From a virus (Duplodnaviria; Caudoviricetes): a stretch of DNA of 64,000 nucleotides. The position numbers were made by a program, and so were the translations under genes. This document shows, piece by piece, positions 3,811 to 58,113 of the stretch. The notes beneath the pieces are model-generated. The model was not told where the DNA came from and ran no database searches. It saw only the letters and a list, made by a program, of their open reading frames with translations. How positions within the stretch are numbered: the stretch's first letter is position 1; every line of letters starts with the position of its first letter. Location: the IMG/VR virus record IMGVR_UViG_3300028797_000148, positions 20,653 to 84,652 of that record, one strand, 5' to 3'.

Positions 3811-4232
3811 TAAATTCATTCAGACGGTTGCTTATCCGAATAGGAAAGATACTGCCTTTTGTTCTTTGCTTTATCGTTTGCATAAGCTACACAGAATCGC
3901 TATACGGCAATATCATTGTTTACGGTGATATTTCTTTCATAGAAACGCCAATATCTTTCTTTGTGGCAGAATACTTTGAATACGATTTACTTTCTTTGGC
4001 CGTGATGCTTACAATATCCGTAGCCATCGAAACGTGCTATTGGAATAAGCTCGCAATAATCTACCTTTGCATTAATCTTTACGAAAGAAGTTATTTTGCT
4101 ACTACAGAAATAAGCGAGGAGGCCGCATTGTTGTTTGCCATATTAAATATTATCACAAGCGGCTTTCTTGCTTTCAAAGGAATTTATTTACTCATACATA
4201 ATAAGAAAGATTATGAAACTCGACAAACGTGA
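3807..4232 (+). CDS. Hypothetical multi-pass membrane protein
   Basis: 141 aa, about four hydrophobic segments. Confidence 0.6.
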   Translation: MINSFRRLLIRIGKILPFVLCFIVCISYTESLYGNIIVYGDISFIETPISFFVAEYFEYDLLSLAVMLTISVAIETCYWNKLAIIYLCINLYERSYFATTEISEEAALLFAILNIITSGFLAFKGIYLLIHNKKDYETRQT

Positions 4233-5112
4233 TGTTACCGTAGTGGATAATCCCGAATTTAGGATGCTTAACAACCGTGTGGGATTGTTCAACTCCAGCT
4301 ATCAAGACTTCAAACGCTATGGCATACCGAAAGCCCAGCTTATTTTGACGGATATTCCGTATTCATTGGGCGACAAGGCTTACGGCAGTAATCCCAGCTG
4401 GTATATTGACGGTGATAACAAGAACGGCGAAAGCGACAAGGCTGGCGAAACATTCTTTGTGACAGACGAGAATTTCAAGCCAGCGGAGTTCATGCACTTT
4501 GCCGCACAGATGCTAAAGCCCGAACAAAAAGGAAAGGTCGACGAAAACGACCGCACAAAGACAAGTGCGCCTTGCATGATTGTGTTCTGTGAGTTCATGC
4601 AGCAGTTCTATCTTATAGAGCTTGGTAAGCGTTACGGATTCAATCACTATATCAATTTGGTTTTCCGTAAAAATTATTCGGCGCAGGTCTTGAAGGCAAA
4701 CATGAAGATTGTAGGAAACTGCGAGTACGGCCTCGTCCTTTACCGTGATAAGCTGCCAAAGTTCAACAATAACGGAACAATGGTTTTCAACTGCATGGAC
4801 TGGCAGCGCGACTTGGGTATGCCGCGTATTCACGAAACGCAAAAACCGATTCCGCTTTTGCAACGATTGATAGAGCTTTTCACAGACCCCGATGATGTCG
4901 TTATAGACCCGTGCGCAGGCAGCGGCAGTACATTGATTGCAGCGGCCAACCTTGGGCGTAAGGCATACGGTCTCGAGATTTCAAAGCGTTTCTATGTGGA
5001 TGCCCGCGATGCCATGCAGAATTATATCCAGCCCGATATGTTTGCTATGCAGGAAAGCAGGTATTATCAGCGTAAAATGGCACAAGAACAAACACTTGCG
5101 CTTGATATTTAA
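4213..5112 (+). CDS. DNA methyltransferase, N4-C/N6-A, beta-class order (MTase 1)
   Basis: Motif IV TDIPY precedes HETQKP and motif I VIDPCAGSGST; ATG at 4213 preferred over the TTG at 4168. Confidence 0.9.
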   Translation: MKLDKRDVTVVDNPEFRMLNNRVGLFNSSYQDFKRYGIPKAQLILTDIPYSLGDKAYGSNPSWYIDGDNKNGESDKAGETFFVTDENFKPAEFMHFAAQMLKPEQKGKVDENDRTKTSAPCMIVFCEFMQQFYLIELGKRYGFNHYINLVFRKNYSAQVLKANMKIVGNCEYGLVLYRDKLPKFNNNGTMVFNCMDWQRDLGMPRIHETQKPIPLLQRLIELFTDPDDVVIDPCAGSGSTLIAAANLGRKAYGLEISKRFYVDARDAMQNYIQPDMFAMQESRYYQRKMAQEQTLALDI

Positions 5113-5457: not shown

Positions 5458-5548
5458 GGAAGTGTAAGCCTAATAGACTAAGGCAGTAGTCTTGAAAACT
5501 ACCAGTAATCGCGCAAGCGGTGTGTGGGTTGGAGTCCCACCACTTCCT
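5458..5548 (+). tRNA. tRNA-Ser (UGA)
   Basis: GGAAGTG/CACTTCC acceptor, GTAGT-CTTGAAA-ACTAC anticodon arm, long variable arm; atypical T-loop TTGGAGT. Confidence 0.8.
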
Positions 5549-5557
5549 CTAAAAAAC

Positions 5558-5648
5558 GGAGAATTACCCAAGCTGGTGAAGGGGCGACATTGCTAACGTC
5601 GTAGGTCGGTAAAACGGCGCGTAGGTTCGAGCCCTACATTCTCCGCCA
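5558..5648 (+). tRNA. tRNA-Ser (GCU)
   Basis: GGAGAAT/ATTCTCC acceptor, loop TTGCTAA, long variable arm, G73, encoded CCA. Confidence 0.9.
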
Positions 5649-5682
5649 AAAACTTTCTTTGGCATACTGATTATAAACGGAT

Positions 5683-5756
5683 TGCTCCATAGCGCAATTG
5701 GTCAGAGCATCAGAATTTGGGTCTGAGGGTTGCACGTTCGAGTCGTGCTGGGGCAA
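5683..5756 (+). tRNA. tRNA-Gln (UUG), probable
   Basis: TGCTCCA/TGGGGCA acceptor (U1-A72); TCAGA-ATTTGGG-TCTGA places TTG at positions 34-36. Confidence 0.7.
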
Positions 5757-5761
5757 CAAAT

Positions 5762-5838
5762 GGGGTTTTAGCTCAGTTGGTTAGAGCATCTGCTTTGCAA
5801 GCAGAGGGTCGTGAGTTCGAGTCTCACATTCTCCACCA
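5762..5838 (+). tRNA. tRNA-Ala (UGC)
   Basis: TCTGC-TTTGCAA-GCAGA, G3:U70, encoded CCA; two U:U mismatches in the acceptor stem. Confidence 0.85.
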
Positions 5839-5844
5839 TGATAC

Positions 5845-6154
5845 GGGGGTATTTTGGTTTTGATTGTAGATGGATGGTAAGAAATCGTGCAAGCAATCAT
5901 GCTTTGAAATGGTAAAAACAATAAATGCTAAGGTTGTCAATATGACTCCCCGTGCTCAAGTGCTGGCAGCAGCCGCATAAGCACCTCGCTGGTGACTTGC
6001 GAAGGAACATAAAAGTTACGGCTTGTTTTCTCCGTTTTCTCAAAACGTAGTGGTGGAACGCTCGTCCATGTTATAAAAGCTGGTCAGCCCCGACGCACGT
6101 AACAAGTTTCTATGATAAATCTGCAAGACGAGGGTTCGACTCCCTCTACCTCCA
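5845..6154 (+). ncRNA. ssrA: tmRNA with tag (A)AKVVNMTPRAQVLAAAA
   Basis: GGGGGTA/TACCTCC acceptor with G3:U70, A discriminator, GAGGG-TTCGACT-CCCTC T-arm, helix-2 pairings (TGTAGAT/ATCTGCA, AGAAA/TTTCT, CGTGC/GCACG), PK1-like AGCA-ATCA-TGCT with ATCAT/ATGGT, tag ORF 5927-5980 after ATAAAT. Confidence 0.92.
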
Positions 6155-6185
6155 CTTGAATATTTTATTTTTAATCATAAGAAAG

Positions 6186-7340
6186 ATGAGTAGAATTAAA
6201 TTTAATGTTGATGAATGGCTACCCCGCTTATCGCAAGTTGTAGGCGTAGTTAATTCAAAAAATCCCCTGCCTATCCTTGGCGACATCTTAATCAAAACAG
6301 ACATGGAAGCCCAAAGGGGGCTTACGTTCACAGCCAGCGATTCGGAAACATGGCTCACCATCGAAGCACCACATCTTAGCTTTGACGATAGCTTTGAAAT
6401 CTGCATCGCTGCCGTTGACTTCTACAAGGCATTATGCAATCTGAAAGGAAAGCAGGTTTGTATGACATTGGATGCCGAGCATCACACCGTAGAATGTGAT
6501 TATGGCAATGGCCGTTTTACGATGGCCTACGAGGATGCTACGGAATATCCAAAGCCAAACATGGATGCCAGCGATTCAAAAAGCAAGGTTATCGACGCTG
6601 ATAAGCTGCTTTACGCGGTAAATAAGCCCGATTACGCCACCGCTAACGATGAGTTACGCCCCGTAATGAATGGCATACGCCTTGAGTTCTTTGCAGATGG
6701 TATGGTAGCCGTTGCAAGCGACGGTCACAAGCTCGCAAAGTTCAAGGATTTGTCTATCATTCCCGAAGGCGATAACGTGGAGGTTTGCGGTTTCACTTTG
6801 CCAAAGAAACCAGCTGGAGTGCTGCGTAATCTGCTTAATCAGTTCGGCGGCGATGTAAGCATCACCTTTAACGACAGATGTGCAACATTCGCAATTGCCG
6901 ATTGCTTTACATTGAACACCCGCCTTATCGAAGGCCGTTATCCCAATTATGAAAGCGTTATCCCAAGGGAAAATACCATCGTTGCCACTATTGACAAGGC
7001 TGCTTTCCTTGCTGCCATGAAACGTGTGCTGCCGATGAGTAACGCATCAAGCGAGCTTATCAGCTTTAAGTTTACGATGGGTAACATGGAGATTAGCGCA
7101 GAGGACTACGATTTCAGCCGTACCGCAAGCGAAAACATTTCCTGCGACTATGCCAGCCCCGACCTACAGATTGGATTTAAGGGCAGCGTGATTATGGCCG
7201 TTCTGCAAAGCATTGATGATGATTCCGTAAAGGTCTACTTAAAGGATTCCATGCGTGCAGGCGTATTCATGCCAGCTACGCAAAAGGATAACACGTCATA
7301 TCTTGCGCTTGCAATGCCGATGCTTATTCAAGACAAATAA
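6186..7340 (+). CDS. dnaN: DNA polymerase III beta sliding clamp
   Basis: Motifs NPLPILGDILI, NDELRPVMNGI, VASDGHKLA, LIEGRYPNYESVIP, LQIGFK, C-terminal AMPM; start at 6186 preferred. Confidence 0.95.
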   Translation: MSRIKFNVDEWLPRLSQVVGVVNSKNPLPILGDILIKTDMEAQRGLTFTASDSETWLTIEAPHLSFDDSFEICIAAVDFYKALCNLKGKQVCMTLDAEHHTVECDYGNGRFTMAYEDATEYPKPNMDASDSKSKVIDADKLLYAVNKPDYATANDELRPVMNGIRLEFFADGMVAVASDGHKLAKFKDLSIIPEGDNVEVCGFTLPKKPAGVLRNLLNQFGGDVSITFNDRCATFAIADCFTLNTRLIEGRYPNYESVIPRENTIVATIDKAAFLAAMKRVLPMSNASSELISFKFTMGNMEISAEDYDFSRTASENISCDYASPDLQIGFKGSVIMAVLQSIDDDSVKVYLKDSMRAGVFMPATQKDNTSYLALAMPMLIQDK

Positions 7341-15366: not shown

Positions 15367-16644
15367 CTATGGATTATCCGATATAAAAGGCTGTGTATCA
15401 ACGGGTATCTCTATGCCAGCCAGCTCAAAATTTATCGGGTCTTTCATGTAATACACCTTTGGATAATCGTCAACACAGCCCGTCCGTTTCGTGTTACGCA
15501 AAAGATGGATGCTTTCGTAGTGGCCTTTTACGTAAATCTTTGACCATATTTCGGGTGAAATCATACCTATAAGCTTGCGACGTATGTGGTACGTATCATA
15601 TTGTCGCATAACACCAAGGTAGCTGTTTATGCTTTGCATGTTATGCACCAGCTTCTTGTGCGATGTGGAAAAGTTGTTTAGGCGGTATATGGCGTCGTAG
15701 GCGTTTCTTACGGTACGAACACCGACGTATGTGCGATATGGCTTAACAACCGCACCTATAAACGCCACACCCTTTGTATAGTGCTGGAAATAGAATTTGT
15801 CGGGATGCAGGTAAACATGCAGGTAAAGGCTCAAGAAACGCCGTATCTTTTCCATGTCCTTGAGCATTTTCTGCTTTTCCTCTTCCGTTTCGCAAACGGC
15901 CATGAAATACCCGTCGTCCACATACCGACCGTGATATTTGTACCCAAGCTTTTCTATGTGAACATCAAGCCAATGCAAAAGGAAATTGGCATTATGCTGG
16001 CTCGGCAGATTACCTATTGGCAATCCAAGACCTGCACCGTTTGTAAATAATGATTTGTTCTTTGGCAATTGCCTCCATAATTCATCGGGGCTATGCCTGC
16101 GGCAGTCCTTTTCGGGCTCATGCAGCATAACCACCTCACTAAGCCAAAGAATATCCTCCTTATCCTCGCCGAAATAGTTGTCCTTGATGAACTGCAAGAG
16201 CATCTTGTTAAGCAGCTGCACATCAATAGACATAAAGAATCCCTGCAAGTCGAATTTGGCTATCCAAACATCTTTCGTGTAACCCTCGCTACATTCGTAC
16301 ATATCCTTTTCCAATTGCGCCACACCGTACATTACGCCCTTACCCTTGCGGCAGTTGAATGTCCTATCTGTGAACAGCTTCTCGAGCAAAGGCTCTACAC
16401 GCATGGCGATATAGTGATGCACGATTCTATCGCGAAATCCCGCAGCGAACACCTCCCGCAGTTTCGGTTTCGTAACCACAAAGGCGATGCTTGTTGATGG
16501 TCGGTAAGTTCGGGCGTTTATCTCATCAGCCAATCTAAGTAAATCCCGCTGATAATCGGGGAAATACTTTATATAAGATGGCGATGATGCCTTGTGAATC
16601 TTACAAATTTGGAATGCCTCAAATAAGTATTCATCCCTTACCAT
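15367..16644 (-). CDS. DGR reverse transcriptase
   Basis: RDRIVHH, KFDLQGFFMSI, GLPIGNLPSQ, GRYVDD, FIGAVV; adjacent TR. Confidence 0.95.
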   Translation of the reverse strand: MVRDEYLFEAFQICKIHKASSPSYIKYFPDYQRDLLRLADEINARTYRPSTSIAFVVTKPKLREVFAAGFRDRIVHHYIAMRVEPLLEKLFTDRTFNCRKGKGVMYGVAQLEKDMYECSEGYTKDVWIAKFDLQGFFMSIDVQLLNKMLLQFIKDNYFGEDKEDILWLSEVVMLHEPEKDCRRHSPDELWRQLPKNKSLFTNGAGLGLPIGNLPSQHNANFLLHWLDVHIEKLGYKYHGRYVDDGYFMAVCETEEEKQKMLKDMEKIRRFLSLYLHVYLHPDKFYFQHYTKGVAFIGAVVKPYRTYVGVRTVRNAYDAIYRLNNFSTSHKKLVHNMQSINSYLGVMRQYDTYHIRRKLIGMISPEIWSKIYVKGHYESIHLLRNTKRTGCVDDYPKVYYMKDPINFELAGIEIPVDTQPFISDNP

Positions 16645-51492: not shown

Positions 51493-51526
51493 GAAATTAC
51501 ATTATTTAACCAAACTTTAACGCTTT

Positions 51527-53671
51527 TTAGAATGGTGCATCACTATCAATAGGTGGTGCAAACGGCATATCGCCTACGGCATAGGGCGCATCGCTTTGCT
51601 CGGTATATACCTCCGCACGTTCGTTTTCATTAAAGGACATTGTGCCTTGAACGGGCTCGGCCTCCCAGCCATAGTGTATATTCTCATCGGGCGTATTCTT
51701 GAAACGGCGGCTTTCGAGCTCATAGTGCAAGCCTACCAGCACATCACAAACGCCATACATACGGTTTTTGGATATTTCCACCACGTTTCCAAAACACGAA
51801 TAACGCTGTATCTGCGACTGCCCGTAGAACTCCGCGCCAGCCTTTAGGAAATCTTGGTTTACACGGTGTGCGATAAACACGTTATCAACGGCGTTTGTAA
51901 GGTCGGCAGTTCCCGATATATCAGCCTTACGCAAGAAAGCCAATGATTTACGCGGGTGCGCAACAATGATAATATGAACGTTGTTTGTCTTTGCGAAATC
52001 CTTCAATTGCAGGATAAGGTTTTTCTGCTTATTGTTCTTGTCGCCCTCCAGCAGGTCTATATCCAATGCCATAAGGTTGTCAAGAATAAACACTTTCACG
52101 CCAGCCTTCAAAAGCTCCTTCATGTCGTGAAAGACCTCCTCCCATGTGTTGCCGTATTCGTTATTGAAAAGGAAGAACTTACCGTCCATCCAATCGTCGA
52201 TGCGCTTTGCTATATTGTTCGGCACGAAATACTTTCCGTCGCCGTATTGGGATAGTTTAAGATTCTCCTTTCCTGCGGCCACCATCTGAATCCATGCCTT
52301 TAGGATATGTGCTGGCAGCTCGCCGCTGAACAATGCGCTCGGTGCGCCCTGCTGCAAGAAATTGCATATAAGCGTATTCAAAAGCGAGGATTTTCCCGAT
52401 GCGTTACCGCCCGAAAGCAAAGTAACCTCACACTCGGCCAATCCAAGGAGCAGGCGGTCTATTTCATTGATGCCCGTCTTGATACGCGGGATAGATGATA
52501 AGTCCACCTTTTGAATATCACCCATGCAAAGCCATTTCTTACCCAATTCGGGCAATTCCTCCTTTATCTGATAGCGGGGCTTTTGCGGGGCATAGATGCG
52601 GGGCGCATACTGCGGCTGATAGGCAGGACGGTCGTATGCCGTTGGCTCATAGAACAAACGTACATCATGCCATGTCTTGTCCTTGCAATGGCTGTGTGTG
52701 CAGTTGAACGTGATTTTACCGTCGTTGTCAACAAACAATGCGCTATCCCATTTCTTGCGGTCGCTATGCGTATCTACCCAAGGGCAGTACTCAAGCTCAT
52801 AAAGGGTGCTTGTGCCGCTTTTCTTTTCGCGGTACTTGATGCCGTGCTCGTTAAGCCACGTAACCAAATCAAACGGGGTGTTATTGCCTTGATATTGCGG
52901 CCTGCGGTTGGGGGCTACCTTTGGCTCTTCCTTTGGCAGCAGGTCGGCTATCTTTTGGAATAGCTCATCATCATTTGGCGACAAATCGGCTGGCACTTTC
53001 ACGATTTCGGCAATTCGCCATTTTCGGTCGGGCGTATCAGAGCCTTTCTTAGCCCATGTGCCTATAAGCTTGTCGATGCGGGCAGGGTTAAAAACCTTCT
53101 CGTCAATCTCCACGTTCGCGTCAGAAAACATCTTTGATAGCGACTGCAAGAAACGCTTAACAAGCTCGTTATGCTCTTCATCGTTAGGCATGTCGCACGG
53201 GAGGTACACATGCCAGCCGTTTCCCGATTTCGTGATTATCGGCTCTTTGAATCCAGCACCGATAAGATAGCGGAATACATCAACGGCCTTTAGGTGTGCT
53301 TTCTCAAACTCATCATCGCTTGCGCTGATGCCAGCAGCACGGCTTGGGTCGAGGTCTATAAGCACCATGCGCCGACGGGTAATATCGCCATCGTTGGTCG
53401 TTGACTTCGGTTTCTTTACGAATGTGTCGTGCTGCTCACGGCTGTATAGCGCATCATTGATTTCGTTGAGCGTGAAATACGCCTGCATCGCGCCGTAATA
53501 CTGATAGTTGTTATGGTCTAACAACGGGCGCAATTGTGCAATAAGCGTATCAATATCGCGAAAGTAGCCGCTGTATGCCGCCTTACCAAGCAGGCGTATC
53601 TCAACGAGCTTTCCCTGCGGGTTGAACAGCTGCCACCATTGCCTTATTTGGCCTTCATTAATTTCGTACAT
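51527..53671 (-). CDS. Primase-helicase fusion (AEP-type primase, Zn finger, SF4/DnaB-like helicase)
   Basis: LIDLD and SGNGWHVY (AEP), CPWVDTH..CTHSHC, Walker A GGNASGKS, FILDNL, VAHPRK, KNR. Confidence 0.85.
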   Translation of the reverse strand: MYEINEGQIRQWWQLFNPQGKLVEIRLLGKAAYSGYFRDIDTLIAQLRPLLDHNNYQYYGAMQAYFTLNEINDALYSREQHDTFVKKPKSTTNDGDITRRRMVLIDLDPSRAAGISASDDEFEKAHLKAVDVFRYLIGAGFKEPIITKSGNGWHVYLPCDMPNDEEHNELVKRFLQSLSKMFSDANVEIDEKVFNPARIDKLIGTWAKKGSDTPDRKWRIAEIVKVPADLSPNDDELFQKIADLLPKEEPKVAPNRRPQYQGNNTPFDLVTWLNEHGIKYREKKSGTSTLYELEYCPWVDTHSDRKKWDSALFVDNDGKITFNCTHSHCKDKTWHDVRLFYEPTAYDRPAYQPQYAPRIYAPQKPRYQIKEELPELGKKWLCMGDIQKVDLSSIPRIKTGINEIDRLLLGLAECEVTLLSGGNASGKSSLLNTLICNFLQQGAPSALFSGELPAHILKAWIQMVAAGKENLKLSQYGDGKYFVPNNIAKRIDDWMDGKFFLFNNEYGNTWEEVFHDMKELLKAGVKVFILDNLMALDIDLLEGDKNNKQKNLILQLKDFAKTNNVHIIIVAHPRKSLAFLRKADISGTADLTNAVDNVFIAHRVNQDFLKAGAEFYGQSQIQRYSCFGNVVEISKNRMYGVCDVLVGLHYELESRRFKNTPDENIHYGWEAEPVQGTMSFNENERAEVYTEQSDAPYAVGDMPFAPPIDSDAPF

Positions 53672-53678
53672 ATATAGA

Positions 53679-54305
53679 TTACTTGTTTATCCAAACCCTA
53701 AAATTCGCATCCCACATTATATCGCCACGATTATTGTTAAGCATGATAGTTGCACCGTCGGGACGGTTCTCATCCGTATAACCATCGGAAATGAAACCAT
53801 CGAAATTGCCTATATACATGTATTTCTGATAATAATCGTTCCAATTCAATGCGCCACCGCATATCGGCCTATAAACAGAATCGCAGCTATCCTCCTTTGT
53901 CGGGTCGTAGATAATCTGATTGTTTGCAAACACTACCGTCTTGTAAACCTTATCGCGGAGGTAACGCTCGAAATCCTTGCAGTATTGAATATCCCTGCTG
54001 GAGACGTATGCCTTGATATGGGGCAGGACGCTTTCCTTTTCACGTTCGGACATTTTCTTCCAATAATCCAAAGCCTTTTTCTTTGAGCCCTTTCTGTTGT
54101 ATGCCTTCCAGCACTCCTCGAAAAGCTCCTTGTTAGGCGCAAGCGTCCTTACATAGTCCACAATCTCGGCCATAGTGTCGAAATCCAGCCCATCATCTAT
54201 AACGATGCCGTTGTCCTCGATTTCGATAATGCCGCGAGTGTCGGCCTTTAACAAGATGTCCCTAACGCGGGCTATCTGCTCGTCTGTTGTTAATCGTAAT
54301 GCCAT
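53679..54305 (-). CDS. Putative replication initiator/helicase loader
   Basis: FEECWKAYNRKGSKKKA..W...FERYL pattern of phage replisome organisers; next to the helicase. Confidence 0.4.
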   Translation of the reverse strand: MALRLTTDEQIARVRDILLKADTRGIIEIEDNGIVIDDGLDFDTMAEIVDYVRTLAPNKELFEECWKAYNRKGSKKKALDYWKKMSEREKESVLPHIKAYVSSRDIQYCKDFERYLRDKVYKTVVFANNQIIYDPTKEDSCDSVYRPICGGALNWNDYYQKYMYIGNFDGFISDGYTDENRPDGATIMLNNNRGDIMWDANFRVWINK

Positions 54306-54323
54306 AATCTTTCTTATTATGTG

Positions 54324-54830
54324 TTATACAAAAACAAAATTATAACCGTTGGTGTTTTTTCTTTCACCACGCGCAACCCTCGCCACCGTATTACGTGTTA
54401 TACCAAGTAAAGCCTCGGCCTCTTGGCAAGAGTTGTAAACCATTCCGTTATTAAGGCATTTTACTTTTTTATATTTATATGCCTTGTTTTCGCGGTTGGC
54501 AAACTGAATATCTTTGGTAGCCCAGCGTAAATTTGATAGATTATTATTTAACGTGTTTCTATCAATATGGTCTACACTAACACCGTCCTTTATGCCTTCG
54601 GGGTGAAATGTTTGCATTATTACCTGCTGCAAGCGAAAACGGTTATGTTCAATACATACAACAACATACCCTCTTTTATCGGGCTTTGTTGACGGTATAG
54701 TCCCGTTCGCACGTTTTATGTTTCCTAAGTTCGATACACTCACCATGCCTTTCAAGTCTATCCATCTGACAATTTCCAAGCACTCGTTGTAACGTGCCAT
54801 TCTTGTTACGGGCTTCCAAATTTCTTTCAT
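54324..54830 (-). CDS. NUMOD4-HNH-NUMOD1 homing endonuclease
   Basis: EIWKPV..VSNLGNI, VDHIDRNTLNNNLSNLRW, YNSCQEA..LGI. Confidence 0.88.
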   Translation of the reverse strand: MKEIWKPVTRMARYNECLEIVRWIDLKGMVSVSNLGNIKRANGTIPSTKPDKRGYVVVCIEHNRFRLQQVIMQTFHPEGIKDGVSVDHIDRNTLNNNLSNLRWATKDIQFANRENKAYKYKKVKCLNNGMVYNSCQEAEALLGITRNTVARVARGERKNTNGYNFVFV

Positions 54831-54931
54831 ATTTTACCTATCTTTTAGTTTAAGCCTATCATTTAAAAAAGTGGAAGGGGTGATAGGCTTACCCCTTATC
54901 AGATGGTGGCCAAACCACCCTATCCACTTTG

Positions 54932-54962
54932 CAAAGTTACACAATAGTTTCCATATAGCAAA
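54932..54962 (-). promoter_or_regulatory. Promoter of the HNH gene
   Basis: Reverse strand TTTG-N19-TAACTTTG. Confidence 0.65.
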
Positions 54963-54982
54963 ATATATTATGTTATTATTTG

Positions 54983-55684
54983 CTAAAACAGCGATAATTG
55001 CTGAACTACGCCGCCATCCTTTGTTTTCTGTATGCCGTTTATTATCCTATCAAAACGTTCGTTCGCTGCATTGAAATACAAAGGCGAAATCTCGCATCCT
55101 ACATAATGCAAACCAAGCTTGTATGCGGCTATCCTACTGCTACCGCTACCGAATGTTGGGTCAAACACAAGGTCGCCAGCTTTTGCATAGTTTTTGAAAA
55201 TCCACGCATACAATTCAATAGGTTTTGCTGTTGGGTGAAAACGCTTATCATCGGGCTTGCTAAGTTGGCTGAACTCCACTATCTTTGCATTTCCTTGAAA
55301 GCTCGTCCACGCATACTCGCACATGGCCATAGAGAAATTTTCGGGAATCTGCTTTTTCCATATCAAGAAACAGCGTGTGGCAGGCATACCGTCGAAATAG
55401 TTAGCACCCCAAATAATCTGATTCTTGCTCACACGGAAAAGCTCCTCGAAGAAATCATCATCGGGTGCTTTATCCCATTCATCAATGTCGATGGGATTAC
55501 CGTCCACTTGGCGATAGCGGTTGAAACGGCCTTTGTGGAATCGGCCACCCTTGATGAAAGCCTCGCTGCCGCCATGTCCGTAAGGCGGGTCGGCTACGGC
55601 TAAATCAAAATAATCATCGGGCAGCGTTTTCATATATTCCACGCAATCCATGTTGAACACATCGCTCCTAAGTTCTTTTTCCAT
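54983..55684 (-). CDS. DNA methyltransferase, beta class (MTase 2)
   Basis: ADPPY, HPTAKP, FDPTFGSGSS; ends QQLSLF. Confidence 0.92.
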   Translation of the reverse strand: MEKELRSDVFNMDCVEYMKTLPDDYFDLAVADPPYGHGGSEAFIKGGRFHKGRFNRYRQVDGNPIDIDEWDKAPDDDFFEELFRVSKNQIIWGANYFDGMPATRCFLIWKKQIPENFSMAMCEYAWTSFQGNAKIVEFSQLSKPDDKRFHPTAKPIELYAWIFKNYAKAGDLVFDPTFGSGSSRIAAYKLGLHYVGCEISPLYFNAANERFDRIINGIQKTKDGGVVQQLSLF

Positions 55685-55687
55685 ATA

Positions 55688-56383
55688 CTAAAAATCTAAT
55701 GTAAGTTGACTTTGTTCAATTCTTATTCTCTTCTTCGTCAGTTCATAATAATGCTCGTCAAGCTCAAAGCCGATAAACGAGCATTTCTGCTGTATCGCCG
55801 CGATAAGCGTCGTGCCACTGCCGCAGGTGCAGTCCATGACTGTGAATTTACCCCCCCCCATTTTCGTCGCGTCAAGAATTAGACGTCGTAACAAATTGAC
55901 GGGCTTTTCATTTGGATGCACCATCTTGTCGGTGGACACACGGGGAACGGATATAATATCTACGGGGCGTTTCCCTTGAAACTTAAAATCCTTCATCGGC
56001 GCGAACACGATGCTTTCGTATCTGCTGCCGTAGGCCGATTCAAGGTCGCCCATAGAGTGATTGCCCTTATCCCATATAAGCACGTTCTTTACGCGCATAC
56101 CGTTCGCCTGCAATTCATCTATAACGGGCTGCTGGACGTCCCACCGTGTGAACAGATAAACAGCACCCGTATCTTTCATAACCCTTGGCAGGTACTTGAT
56201 AAAATCAACAAACGGCCTTTTGTCGTTGGCAATCTTGTCAAAGTGCTTTTGTTTTCCGTTCCAAGAGGACTGATAGTCTATGCCGTAGGGCAAATCCGTG
56301 ATACACACATCAATACTCTTGTCGGGTACTTGCTGGATAAGCTCCAAGCAGTCGCCGTGATATACGTTATTGAACTCCAGCAT
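55688..56383 (-). CDS. DNA methyltransferase, beta class (MTase 3)
   Basis: TDLPY, HPNEKP, MDCTCGSGTT; ends QLTLDF; G9 tract at 55851-55859. Confidence 0.92.
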   Translation of the reverse strand: MLEFNNVYHGDCLELIQQVPDKSIDVCITDLPYGIDYQSSWNGKQKHFDKIANDKRPFVDFIKYLPRVMKDTGAVYLFTRWDVQQPVIDELQANGMRVKNVLIWDKGNHSMGDLESAYGSRYESIVFAPMKDFKFQGKRPVDIISVPRVSTDKMVHPNEKPVNLLRRLILDATKMGGGKFTVMDCTCGSGTTLIAAIQQKCSFIGFELDEHYYELTKKRIRIEQSQLTLDF

Positions 56384-56386
56384 ATA

Positions 56387-57160
56387 CTATCCCAATTTAT
56401 CGCCACAGCACCAAAGCATGTCGCCACTTTCCAAGAACTTTATGCAATGCGCATCCGACTGAGCCAGCATCGGAATATCTTCGTAGACAACATCTTCCGT
56501 CGACGTCGTTTGCTTGATGCGCTTATATGTGAACGTTACCTGCGGGCGGTCAAACAATCCGTTTCCAAGCAGCCTTGCAACGGTATTGTACGGCTCGCGC
56601 TTTGCCGTTACGCCCATAACCTCCACGTCGGGGCGGTTATAGAACGACAAGCCGTGACAGATGCCAGCAACGATAACGCCGCTTTCATCGTACACCACAA
56701 TACGCTTTATATCCTGCGGCACTAAGAAACATTGGTGCATGACCGTTTCAACGGCACAGCGGGCAGCAAAGCCCATCGGTAGCATGATACGGTTGCTATC
56801 CATGTCCGCATATTCCCTTGCACGGGCGTTAATAACGTTATTGTAGCCGTTAGCCACTTGATGATAGTGCAGATTCTTGTTTAGCACGGCCATCGCAGCC
56901 ATCATAGGCGTTTCATCGCCGTTAGGGGTAAATATGTCGCACTTAAACCCGAAATCCGCACAGCCCTGCGCCACAAGTGCCAAATCAACATCATTACGCC
57001 CGCAGGCATAGGTGACCTCCGTGTAGCCAGCATCATCAACGCGGTTTAGCAAAGAGTAAACCATACGGCCTCTTGTGCCGCATACGCCACCTTTGGCGAA
57101 CTTGTAGTCCTCCTTGATGTATATGCCATTGTGACCGTATATAGACGTCAGTTTATCCAT
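56387..57160 (-). CDS. PLP-dependent fold-type II (ACC deaminase/cysteine synthase)-like protein, degenerate
   Basis: IYIKEDY..GG..GTRGR, LVAQGCADFGFKCDIFTP, IVV...SG..VAGI. Confidence 0.55.
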   Translation of the reverse strand: MDKLTSIYGHNGIYIKEDYKFAKGGVCGTRGRMVYSLLNRVDDAGYTEVTYACGRNDVDLALVAQGCADFGFKCDIFTPNGDETPMMAAMAVLNKNLHYHQVANGYNNVINARAREYADMDSNRIMLPMGFAARCAVETVMHQCFLVPQDIKRIVVYDESGVIVAGICHGLSFYNRPDVEVMGVTAKREPYNTVARLLGNGLFDRPQVTFTYKRIKQTTSTEDVVYEDIPMLAQSDAHCIKFLESGDMLWCCGDKLG

Positions 57161-57509
57161 TTTTCTTGTCTTTGTTCCTTTTGTTCAACTTTCCTGCAAG
57201 CAAGAGCGTAGACACCTTGTCATAGATAGCCCTATTCTCCAAGTTGGTACGTATCTTTCCGAAATCATCATCATCCACGCATCTGCGGTACGACTTTCCC
57301 AATATCTTAGGCACGTCTGTACGTTTGATATTGGCATCATCGCAAAGGCGCGAAAGCATACGTACCTCCTTTTCGGTGGCCTCGCAGCTGCCATCCTTGT
57401 TAGCACGTATGGTGCTGTTAAGCCAAGGCAGCAGGCCGCGTTTGTTAGCCATATAGCGCAATCTCGAAAGATATTCACGCGCCATCGCTTGCAGGGTATC
57501 GTTACGCAT
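57153..57509 (-). CDS. Hypothetical protein
   Basis: 118 aa. Confidence 0.6.
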   Translation of the reverse strand: MRNDTLQAMAREYLSRLRYMANKRGLLPWLNSTIRANKDGSCEATEKEVRMLSRLCDDANIKRTDVPKILGKSYRRCVDDDDFGKIRTNLENRAIYDKVSTLLLAGKLNKRNKDKKNG

Positions 57510-57511
57510 AG

Positions 57512-57937
57512 TTAGAATGGTAAATCGTCAGCTGGTGTATCTCCCGTCGTTTCGGGCATAGGCGATGCGGCTGGTGCGCTTGTAGGTGCTGGTGCTGACG
57601 GGGCATTTCCCGTAGTAGTGCCAGCATTGGCCGCTGGTGCTGGAGCTGCCGCCTGCTGCTGTCCGTCCATGCGAACGGCACGCCACGCTTGACACTCCGT
57701 GAACCACTTACCTTGCCACTCGCGGCTCTCGACGTCGAATGATACGTTATAGAAACCGCCAACGTCAATCTGCATCTGCGCGAACTTATCCTCGCCCATA
57801 ACCTTGAAGGCCACCTTTTTCGGGTACTGCCCCTGCGTTTCGATAACGAACTGATTGGTTACGTATGTATTGCCATTCTTCTGTGATGTGTATGTCTGCG
57901 GATTAAGCACCGCAACGACTTTTCCTTGTAATTCCAT
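57512..57937 (-). CDS. DUF3127 family OB-fold (SSB-like) protein
   Basis: MELQGKVVAVL, QYPKKVAF, SFDVESREWQGKWFT, Ala/Pro linker, DDLPF tip. Confidence 0.8.
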   Translation of the reverse strand: MELQGKVVAVLNPQTYTSQKNGNTYVTNQFVIETQGQYPKKVAFKVMGEDKFAQMQIDVGGFYNVSFDVESREWQGKWFTECQAWRAVRMDGQQQAAAPAPAANAGTTTGNAPSAPAPTSAPAASPMPETTGDTPADDLPF

Positions 57938-57960
57938 ATTGCTTTAATATTTTAATGTTA

Positions 57961-58113
57961 TTAATCTTGTACTGCCTTGGGCTGGCGTTCATACCAGTCC
58001 ATAGCCAAAGCTGGATGGGTAACGCAAAGGCGTACCGCAATGGCTACCGCGCCTTTGATGTAAGACGCTTTCTGAGCCCTTTCCATTTGTCGGTCAAATT
58101 CCTGCTGTGTCAT
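57961..58113 (-). CDS. Small hypothetical protein
   Basis: MTQQEFDRQMERA...; start uncertain (track start 58209). Confidence 0.4.
   Translation of the reverse strand: MTQQEFDRQMERAQKASYIKGAVAIAVRLCVTHPALAMDWYERQPKAVQD

Follow-up and report, generated by a model that had tools for sequence, protein, structure and literature searches.

In Bacteria, proteins that work with the beta sliding clamp DnaN, such as Pol II, Pol III alpha, Pol IV, UmuC, MutS, Hda and PolC, carry a short peptide of the form QL[S/D]LF or QxxLxF/QxxLxL, known as the Dalrymple-type clamp-binding motif. Pol III alpha has an internal QADMF and a C-terminal QVELEF. In this study, we report peptides of this type on three DNA methyltransferases (MTases 1, 2 and 3) of a gut virus of the Caudoviricetes that is known from metagenomes only (IMG/VR virus record IMGVR_UViG_3300028797_000148). 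The record is 84,652 bp long and is rated as 100% complete by CheckV. The window, that is the whole stretch of DNA under analysis, comprises its bases 20653-84652 (64,000 nucleotides), and all positions below are window coordinates unless another locus is named. From sequence comparisons and a structural model, we propose that these tails probably dock the MTases on beta clamps, which would concentrate the enzymes on new DNA and speed the complete methylation of the phage genome.

Compared with the described bacterial clamp clients, the phage peptides share an identical or nearly identical consensus, a terminal or near-terminal position and, in the model, the same cleft. They differ by their carriers, which are DNA methyltransferases of phages and prophages, known from sequence and model. 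A functional analogy can be drawn with DNMT1 and PCNA, where docking by a PCNA-interacting-peptide (PIP) box is thought to raise the efficiency of methylation on newly replicated DNA (PMC9690074). In both cases a DNA methyltransferase has a short clamp-docking peptide, but there is no homology between the two. DNMT1, a large C5 maintenance enzyme, has its PIP box near the N-terminus and the trimeric PCNA as its partner, whereas the phage MTases are small beta-class amino-methyltransferases with a C-terminal motif of the bacterial type, suited to the dimeric DnaN. The use of the host clamp by proteins of mobile elements is also documented, for transposases of the IS and Tn3 families, for TnsE of Tn7 and for MuC of Mu (PMC4549789, PMC11417375, PMC12867686). 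As proposed here, a mobile element puts a clamp-binding motif on its own protein and couples the activity of this protein to replication, but the activities concerned are the choice of transposition targets and late transcription, and none of them is DNA-modifying. Clamp motifs and clamp-using proteins of mobile elements were thus already known, and DNA methyltransferases as putative clamp clients would be the new part: in the open-access full-text literature, we found no bacterial or phage DNA methyltransferase described as having such a motif.

Clamp-type motifs of the three methyltransferases

MTase 2 (54983-55684, minus strand, 233 amino acids) and MTase 3 (55688-56383, minus strand, 231 amino acids) are beta-class N6/N4 DNA methyltransferases that match PF01555 with 55.7 and 89.3 bits, respectively, for a gathering cut-off of 26.7 bits, and phrog_67 with E-values of 1.7e-41 and 6.3e-55. 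A first-pass annotation of the locus, made from the sequence alone, had pointed out the C-terminal QLSLF of MTase 2 and QLTLDF of MTase 3, and both endings are read in the translations of the open reading frames (ORFs). QLSLF (54986-55000, minus strand) is an exact match to the clamp-binding pentapeptide consensus, QLTLDF (55691-55708, minus strand) is a clamp-binding motif of the hexapeptide type, and each is immediately followed by the stop codon. When all six frames of the window were scanned, no ORF other than those of MTase 2 and MTase 3 had such a motif at its very end. MTase 2 is also the only protein with QxxLF or QxxLxF in its last 10 residues in a set of 123 ORFs of the 84.6-kb genome, a crude, non-overlapping set from which MTase 3 was displaced by an overlapping ORF.

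The MTase 2 tail is strongly conserved. A terminal QxxLF or QxxLxF is kept in 114 of its 120 closest relatives, which range from 100% down to 46% identity. In these proteins the motif is mostly Q-L-[ST]-L-F, of the Q-x-x-[LI]-F type, with 0-3 extra residues after the F, while the 12-15 residues that precede it are variable. When relatives are grouped in clusters at 50% identity, the 150 best representatives, at 38-70% identity and mostly at 40-60%, include 56 with the motif in their last 10 residues, where the rate of the same pattern in protein bodies predicts approximately 1.3%. Several of these proteins have two copies of the motif split by a short spacer. For MTase 3, a tail (QLTLF, QPTLF, QLSFDF or similar) is present in 23 of the 43 closest relatives and in none of 77 more distant ones, which end a few residues past the last helix. 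By this comparison, the MTase 3 tail clearly appears to be an add-on.

The AlphaFold2 (AF2) models of both proteins have a mean predicted local distance difference test (pLDDT) score of 87. In MTase 2, the last five residues come after a small beta-hairpin and pLDDT falls to ~73. In MTase 3, the motif is a coil directly after the last helix (H210-225) and confidence drops at the end. Both tails lie outside the folded domain, at a distance from the fold that varies among relatives. A disordered linker before the MTase 2 motif was also considered; it finds no support in the AF2 model, which gives the hairpin at this place. The closest solved relatives, CcrM (6pbd), M.MboIIA (1g60), DpnA (5hek) and M.RsrI (1eg2), belong to the same fold family and have the same motif order, but their homology with the phage enzymes ends at the last helix (query residues 209-227). 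In all three phage MTases, as expected for the beta class, the catalytic motif IV of the D/S-P-P-Y type (DPPY, DLPY and DIPY) is located upstream of the S-adenosylmethionine-binding motif I of the FxGxG type (GSGSS, GSGTT and GSGST), and all three enzymes look catalytically intact at the sequence level.

MTase 1 (4168-5112, plus strand; PF01555, 76.3 bits) is encoded by an ORF that opens with TTG at 4168, the first ATG, at 4213, being the likelier start. Its QPDMF (5029-5043, plus strand), also put forward in the first-pass annotation, is read in the translation as an internal motif, 22 residues before the C-terminus. It resembles QADMF of E. coli Pol III alpha, which is internal too. In the alignments with most of 80 viral MTase 1 relatives, its counterpart is their terminal IQVSLF(Q), IQPSLF or IQPNIF; for most relatives the tblastn alignment stops at query residue 292, the F of QPDMF, which is the end of their ORF. 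QPDMF, the weakest of the three motifs, is thus a homologue of genuine terminal motifs. The C-terminal extension of MTase 1 is also present in the five closest relatives, which have a second motif at the end of it (QPTLF, QLSFDM, QQELALV, QTELNLV and KELFDV). In view of these endings, the terminal QTLALDI of MTase 1 (5089-5109, plus strand) may be a second, degenerate motif.

The frequency of the motif was compared between MTase-like and other ORFs in fetched loci, where non-overlapping ORFs of at least 100 amino acids were called and classed by hidden Markov models built from our own alignments. In 80 viral loci, 68 of 83 MTase-like ORFs (82%) have the motif, versus 3 of 592 other ORFs (0.5%). 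In 80 loci from bacterial genomes, it is found in 49 of 96 MTase-like ORFs (51%) versus 10 of 583 others (1.7%). The odds ratios are ~890 and ~60, respectively, so that the motif stands far above background (~60-fold or more). A chance resemblance or a neutral sequence is, in our opinion, a barely credible origin for the tails. It is true that short motifs arise by chance and that ~0.5-1.7% of unrelated ORFs match the loose pattern; against this, besides the enrichment, the motif is conserved over hundreds of relatives and many phyla while its flanks vary, and all three MTases of one phage carry it.

The ten motif-bearing proteins among the other ORFs of the bacterial-genome loci also deserve attention. 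Four of them, located near MTase 2 homologues in Bacteroidales genomes, end in NQQLSLF (L115:5843-7231, L116:6511-7953, L127:5802-6977 and L129:5805-6980), and the one scanned, at L115, is C5 cytosine methyltransferase-like (PF00145). Another one is a PAPS-reductase-domain protein ending in QQTINFD (L124:1958-2908), and yet another is a VapE-like replication protein. The C5 methyltransferase-like and PAPS-reductase-domain carriers indicate that the clamp-type tail is not limited to PF01555 enzymes. In a Pfam scan of ten neighbours in the fetched loci, seven were further PF01555 enzymes. The carrier bins are assigned to Bacteroidota, Bacillota, Spirochaetota, Verrucomicrobiota, Actinomycetota, Pseudomonadota and Saccharibacteria, and this spread fits a motif that would be aimed at the universally conserved bacterial clamp.

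A separate observation concerns the MTase 3 gene. A G9 tract is found on the coding strand at 55851-55859, just before the S-adenosylmethionine (SAM) motif I. The metagenomic alleles P0124-P0126 (96-97% identity over the first 177 residues) and P0128 (83%) shift frame exactly after TK[MI]GG, by which motif I and the clamp tail are lost, and one of these alleles is present on nine contigs. The frame-shifted alleles fit slippage at the G9 tract, i.e. phase-variable methylation.

The beta clamp as putative target

The presence of a DnaN gene in the same phage, which was part of the initial proposal, is borne out. The protein (6186-7340, plus strand, 384 amino acids from the ATG; ORF from 6156) has the three beta-clamp domains PF00712, PF02767 and PF02768, all above the Pfam threshold, and shows 35-38% identity to the DnaN of Bacteroides and Prevotella. 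In its cleft, SDGHKL and MPM vary little or not at all across 58 relatives of the phage DnaN. Furthermore, 17 of 25 interface positions are identical to the Bacteroides/Prevotella DnaN, versus 35% identity overall.

For a complex model, run for MTase 2 only and with our own alignments, residues 200-233 of this enzyme were combined with the phage DnaN. The complex scored 0.70, versus 0.04 for the best of three controls (0.00-0.04), a result that may reflect memory of solved complexes. Of 80 solved complexes, 58 reach the 0.70 mark, as do 2 of 110 mismatched pairs; these counts are a rough guide, since own alignments were used here. At least 94% of contacts are common to the runs, with a partner pLDDT of at least 49. 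Residues 225-233 of MTase 2 contact DnaN at 178-183 (SDGHKL), 253, 258 and 377-384 (MPM...), which we take to be the canonical peptide cleft, by reference to TDGHRL, P242/V247 and MPM of the E. coli beta clamp. The model thus supports a position of the MTase 2 tail in the cleft between domains II and III of DnaN.

These data also bear on whether the tails could be C-terminal signals of another kind: a protease degron, a capsid-packaging signal, an interaction site for some other phage protein or a strand folded back against the enzyme itself. The structured hairpin before the MTase 2 motif would suit such a role, as would the pLDDT of ~73 that the last residues still reach. However, conservation falls precisely on the positions that define a clamp motif, namely Q (-5), an aliphatic residue (-2) and F (-1). 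In addition, the motif tolerates 1-3 residues after the F, it can be internal or duplicated, and its spacing from the fold is not constant, all of which is unlike a signal that depends on a free C-terminus or on packing at a fixed site. Considering also that the same peptide is found on the unrelated folds of PF00145, PAPS reductase and VapE, and that the docking controls stay at 0.00-0.04, we regard a signal of this kind as unlikely.

With docking on a clamp as the preferred reading, the partner could be the clamp of the host or that of the phage. We found no match to the Pol III alpha, Pol A and Pol B families in the 84,652-bp phage genome, in which the large ORFs are structural. With no polymerase of its own, the phage must use the host replicase, and its clamp must therefore be host-compatible. 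The search, made for a polymerase or clamp loader that could be the main client of the clamp, showed no clear clamp loader either: one AAA+ protein, encoded outside the window, matches a clamp-loader PHROG weakly (9e-7) and a CobS/MoxR-like family far better. Besides DnaN, a primase-helicase and a single-stranded DNA-binding protein (SSB), the phage also encodes RecT/RecE-like proteins.

DnaN is likewise encoded by the five closest relatives of the phage (55-82 kb). It is absent from five more distant (pro)viruses with MTase 1 homologues ending in IQVSLFQ or similar, three of which are 94-100% complete. DnaN is also missing from four cultured phages that bear MTase tails: Bacteroides BF486P1 (QTSLFGV) and BI-TP1 (QTNLFDK), Streptococcus Javan349 (QLKLF) and Polaribacter P12002S (TPTLF). 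The same tails in (pro)viruses and cultured phages that have no DnaN point to a clamp of the host type as the conserved target. The dependence on the phage's own DnaN that the first-pass annotation had implied is therefore not upheld: judged by these gene contents, the phage-encoded clamp is an optional extra and not the basis of the system.

The tails might also bind the clamp mainly for host takeover. In such a scheme, they would occupy clamp clefts in competition with host polymerases, Hda or repair proteins, the phage DnaN would refill the supply of clamps for phage replication, and methylation would be independent of the contact. The fit of the motif in the modelled cleft and the extra DnaN in a phage without polymerase agree with this scheme, and MuC is a phage protein that engages the host clamp for a non-replication purpose (bioRxiv 10.1101/2025.01.04.631326). 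It is nevertheless unlikely, as the motif is found almost only on DNA-modifying enzymes and not on arbitrary carriers, the catalytic motifs are intact in all three MTases, and tails are also borne by temperate (pro)viruses, to which chronic poisoning of the clamp would be costly.

As a side observation on clamps of this kind, the genome of Prevotella sp. CAG:1058 contains three separate DnaN-like genes (37%, 33% and 32% identity of the products to the phage DnaN), of which the additional ones may belong to prophages.

Gene neighbourhood

MTases 2 and 3 share a same-strand gene block with the SSB and the primase-helicase; a homing-type HNH_3/NUMOD endonuclease and a PLP-fold protein are also among their neighbours. 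No match to a restriction-enzyme family was found among the genes neighbouring MTases 2 and 3, so that the MTases look orphan. A type II restriction-modification system was considered and rejected, the cognate endonuclease gene that should be adjacent in such a system not being found. A megablast search of the region 51500-58000 against cultured phages gave no match.

Two of the neighbours have C-terminal motifs of their own. The PrimPol-DnaB-type primase-helicase (51527-53671, minus strand) has in its tail QGTMSF (51632-51649), then DMPF and a terminal DSDAPF. Four relatives (51-69% identity) keep Q-x-x-[MIV]-x-F, [DG]MPF and a terminal D-x-x-PF, with spacers that vary. The Q-x-x-[MIV]-x-F element looks like a clamp-binding motif of the hexapeptide type. 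The SSB, of DUF3127 type (57512-57937, minus strand; PF11325, 90.4 bits; phrog_4932), ends in DDLPF. The terminal D-x-x-PF of the primase-helicase resembles this tip, which suggests that the two proteins may compete for, or share, the binding sites of the SSB tip.

Other features of the window can be noted. Directly upstream of MTase 3 is the gene of the PLP-fold protein (56387-57160, minus strand, 257 amino acids), which is PALP-like, below the Pfam threshold, and without a clamp motif. Between MTase 1 and DnaN (5458-6155), ARAGORN detected four tRNAs (Ser-tga, Ser-gct, Gln-ttg and Ala-tgc) and a phage transfer-messenger RNA (tmRNA) with a 17-residue tag ending in LAAAA. Finally, a reverse transcriptase (15367-16644, minus strand; PF00078, 40.1 bits) is encoded in the tail-gene region.

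A proposed model of replication-coupled methylation

We can propose the following course of events. QLSLF, QLTLDF and QPDMF, together with the degenerate terminal copy of MTase 1, would most likely enter the hydrophobic cleft that separates domains II and III of a beta clamp. This clamp could be that of the host, the host-like one of the phage or both. Once loaded at primer ends, clamps stay behind the fork. Docked on them, the enzymes would be concentrated on newly synthesised phage DNA and would scan it, and rapidly replicating genomes could become fully methylated before restriction or packaging. From the motifs and the model, we infer that the tails bind the clamp physically, that the enzymes act at or behind the fork and that they protect the phage DNA from restriction. 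The first-pass annotation had likewise seen in the tails a means of tethering MTases to the clamp so that nascent phage DNA is methylated at the fork, ahead of restriction. The conserved clamp-type motifs, the intact cleft of DnaN and the placement of the tail in this cleft in the model speak for a tether of this kind, while methylation at the fork, ahead of restriction, would be its putative role. The requirement for the phage DnaN has to be removed from the proposal.

Several points weigh against the proposed coupling. First, tail-less relatives of these MTases exist, some of them labelled phage, so that the enzyme itself can do without a tail. Second, AF2 predicts a hairpin with fair confidence (pLDDT 87-91) for the segment that precedes QLSLF in MTase 2. 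Third, the enrichment counts come from related sequences and not from independent events; binomial p-values would therefore not be probabilities of independent events, and we relied on the contrasts instead. Fourth, since many clamp-peptide complexes have been solved, the success of the complex model may be a matter of memory, and what it establishes is likeness to such complexes, not binding. Finally, hemimethylated DNA already resists many restriction enzymes, and the selective benefit of a faster methylation is unproven.

A broader proposal can be made, to which we give about even chances. Clamp docking could be a general, cross-phylum strategy by which DNA-modifying enzymes of phages, prophages and plasmids (N6/N4, C5 and PAPS-reductase-type) couple epigenetic self-marking to replication, with some phages adding a host-compatible DnaN as a landing pad for their clients, here the three MTases and the primase-helicase.

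The idea is directly testable, as the peptides are short, assays of DnaN binding are routine, and the cultured phages BF486P1 and BI-TP1 and the prophage Javan349 carry the same tails. If it is true, the sequence signature could be used to annotate replication-coupled DNA-modifying enzymes in viral metagenomes, and the finding would matter wherever phages are designed that must escape restriction in laboratory hosts. The known clamp clients would be joined by a new and large class, and DNMT1 and PCNA would have a prokaryotic parallel. For the phages themselves, clamp docking would be a simple answer to the problem of keeping dozens of rapidly replicating genomes fully methylated against restriction.

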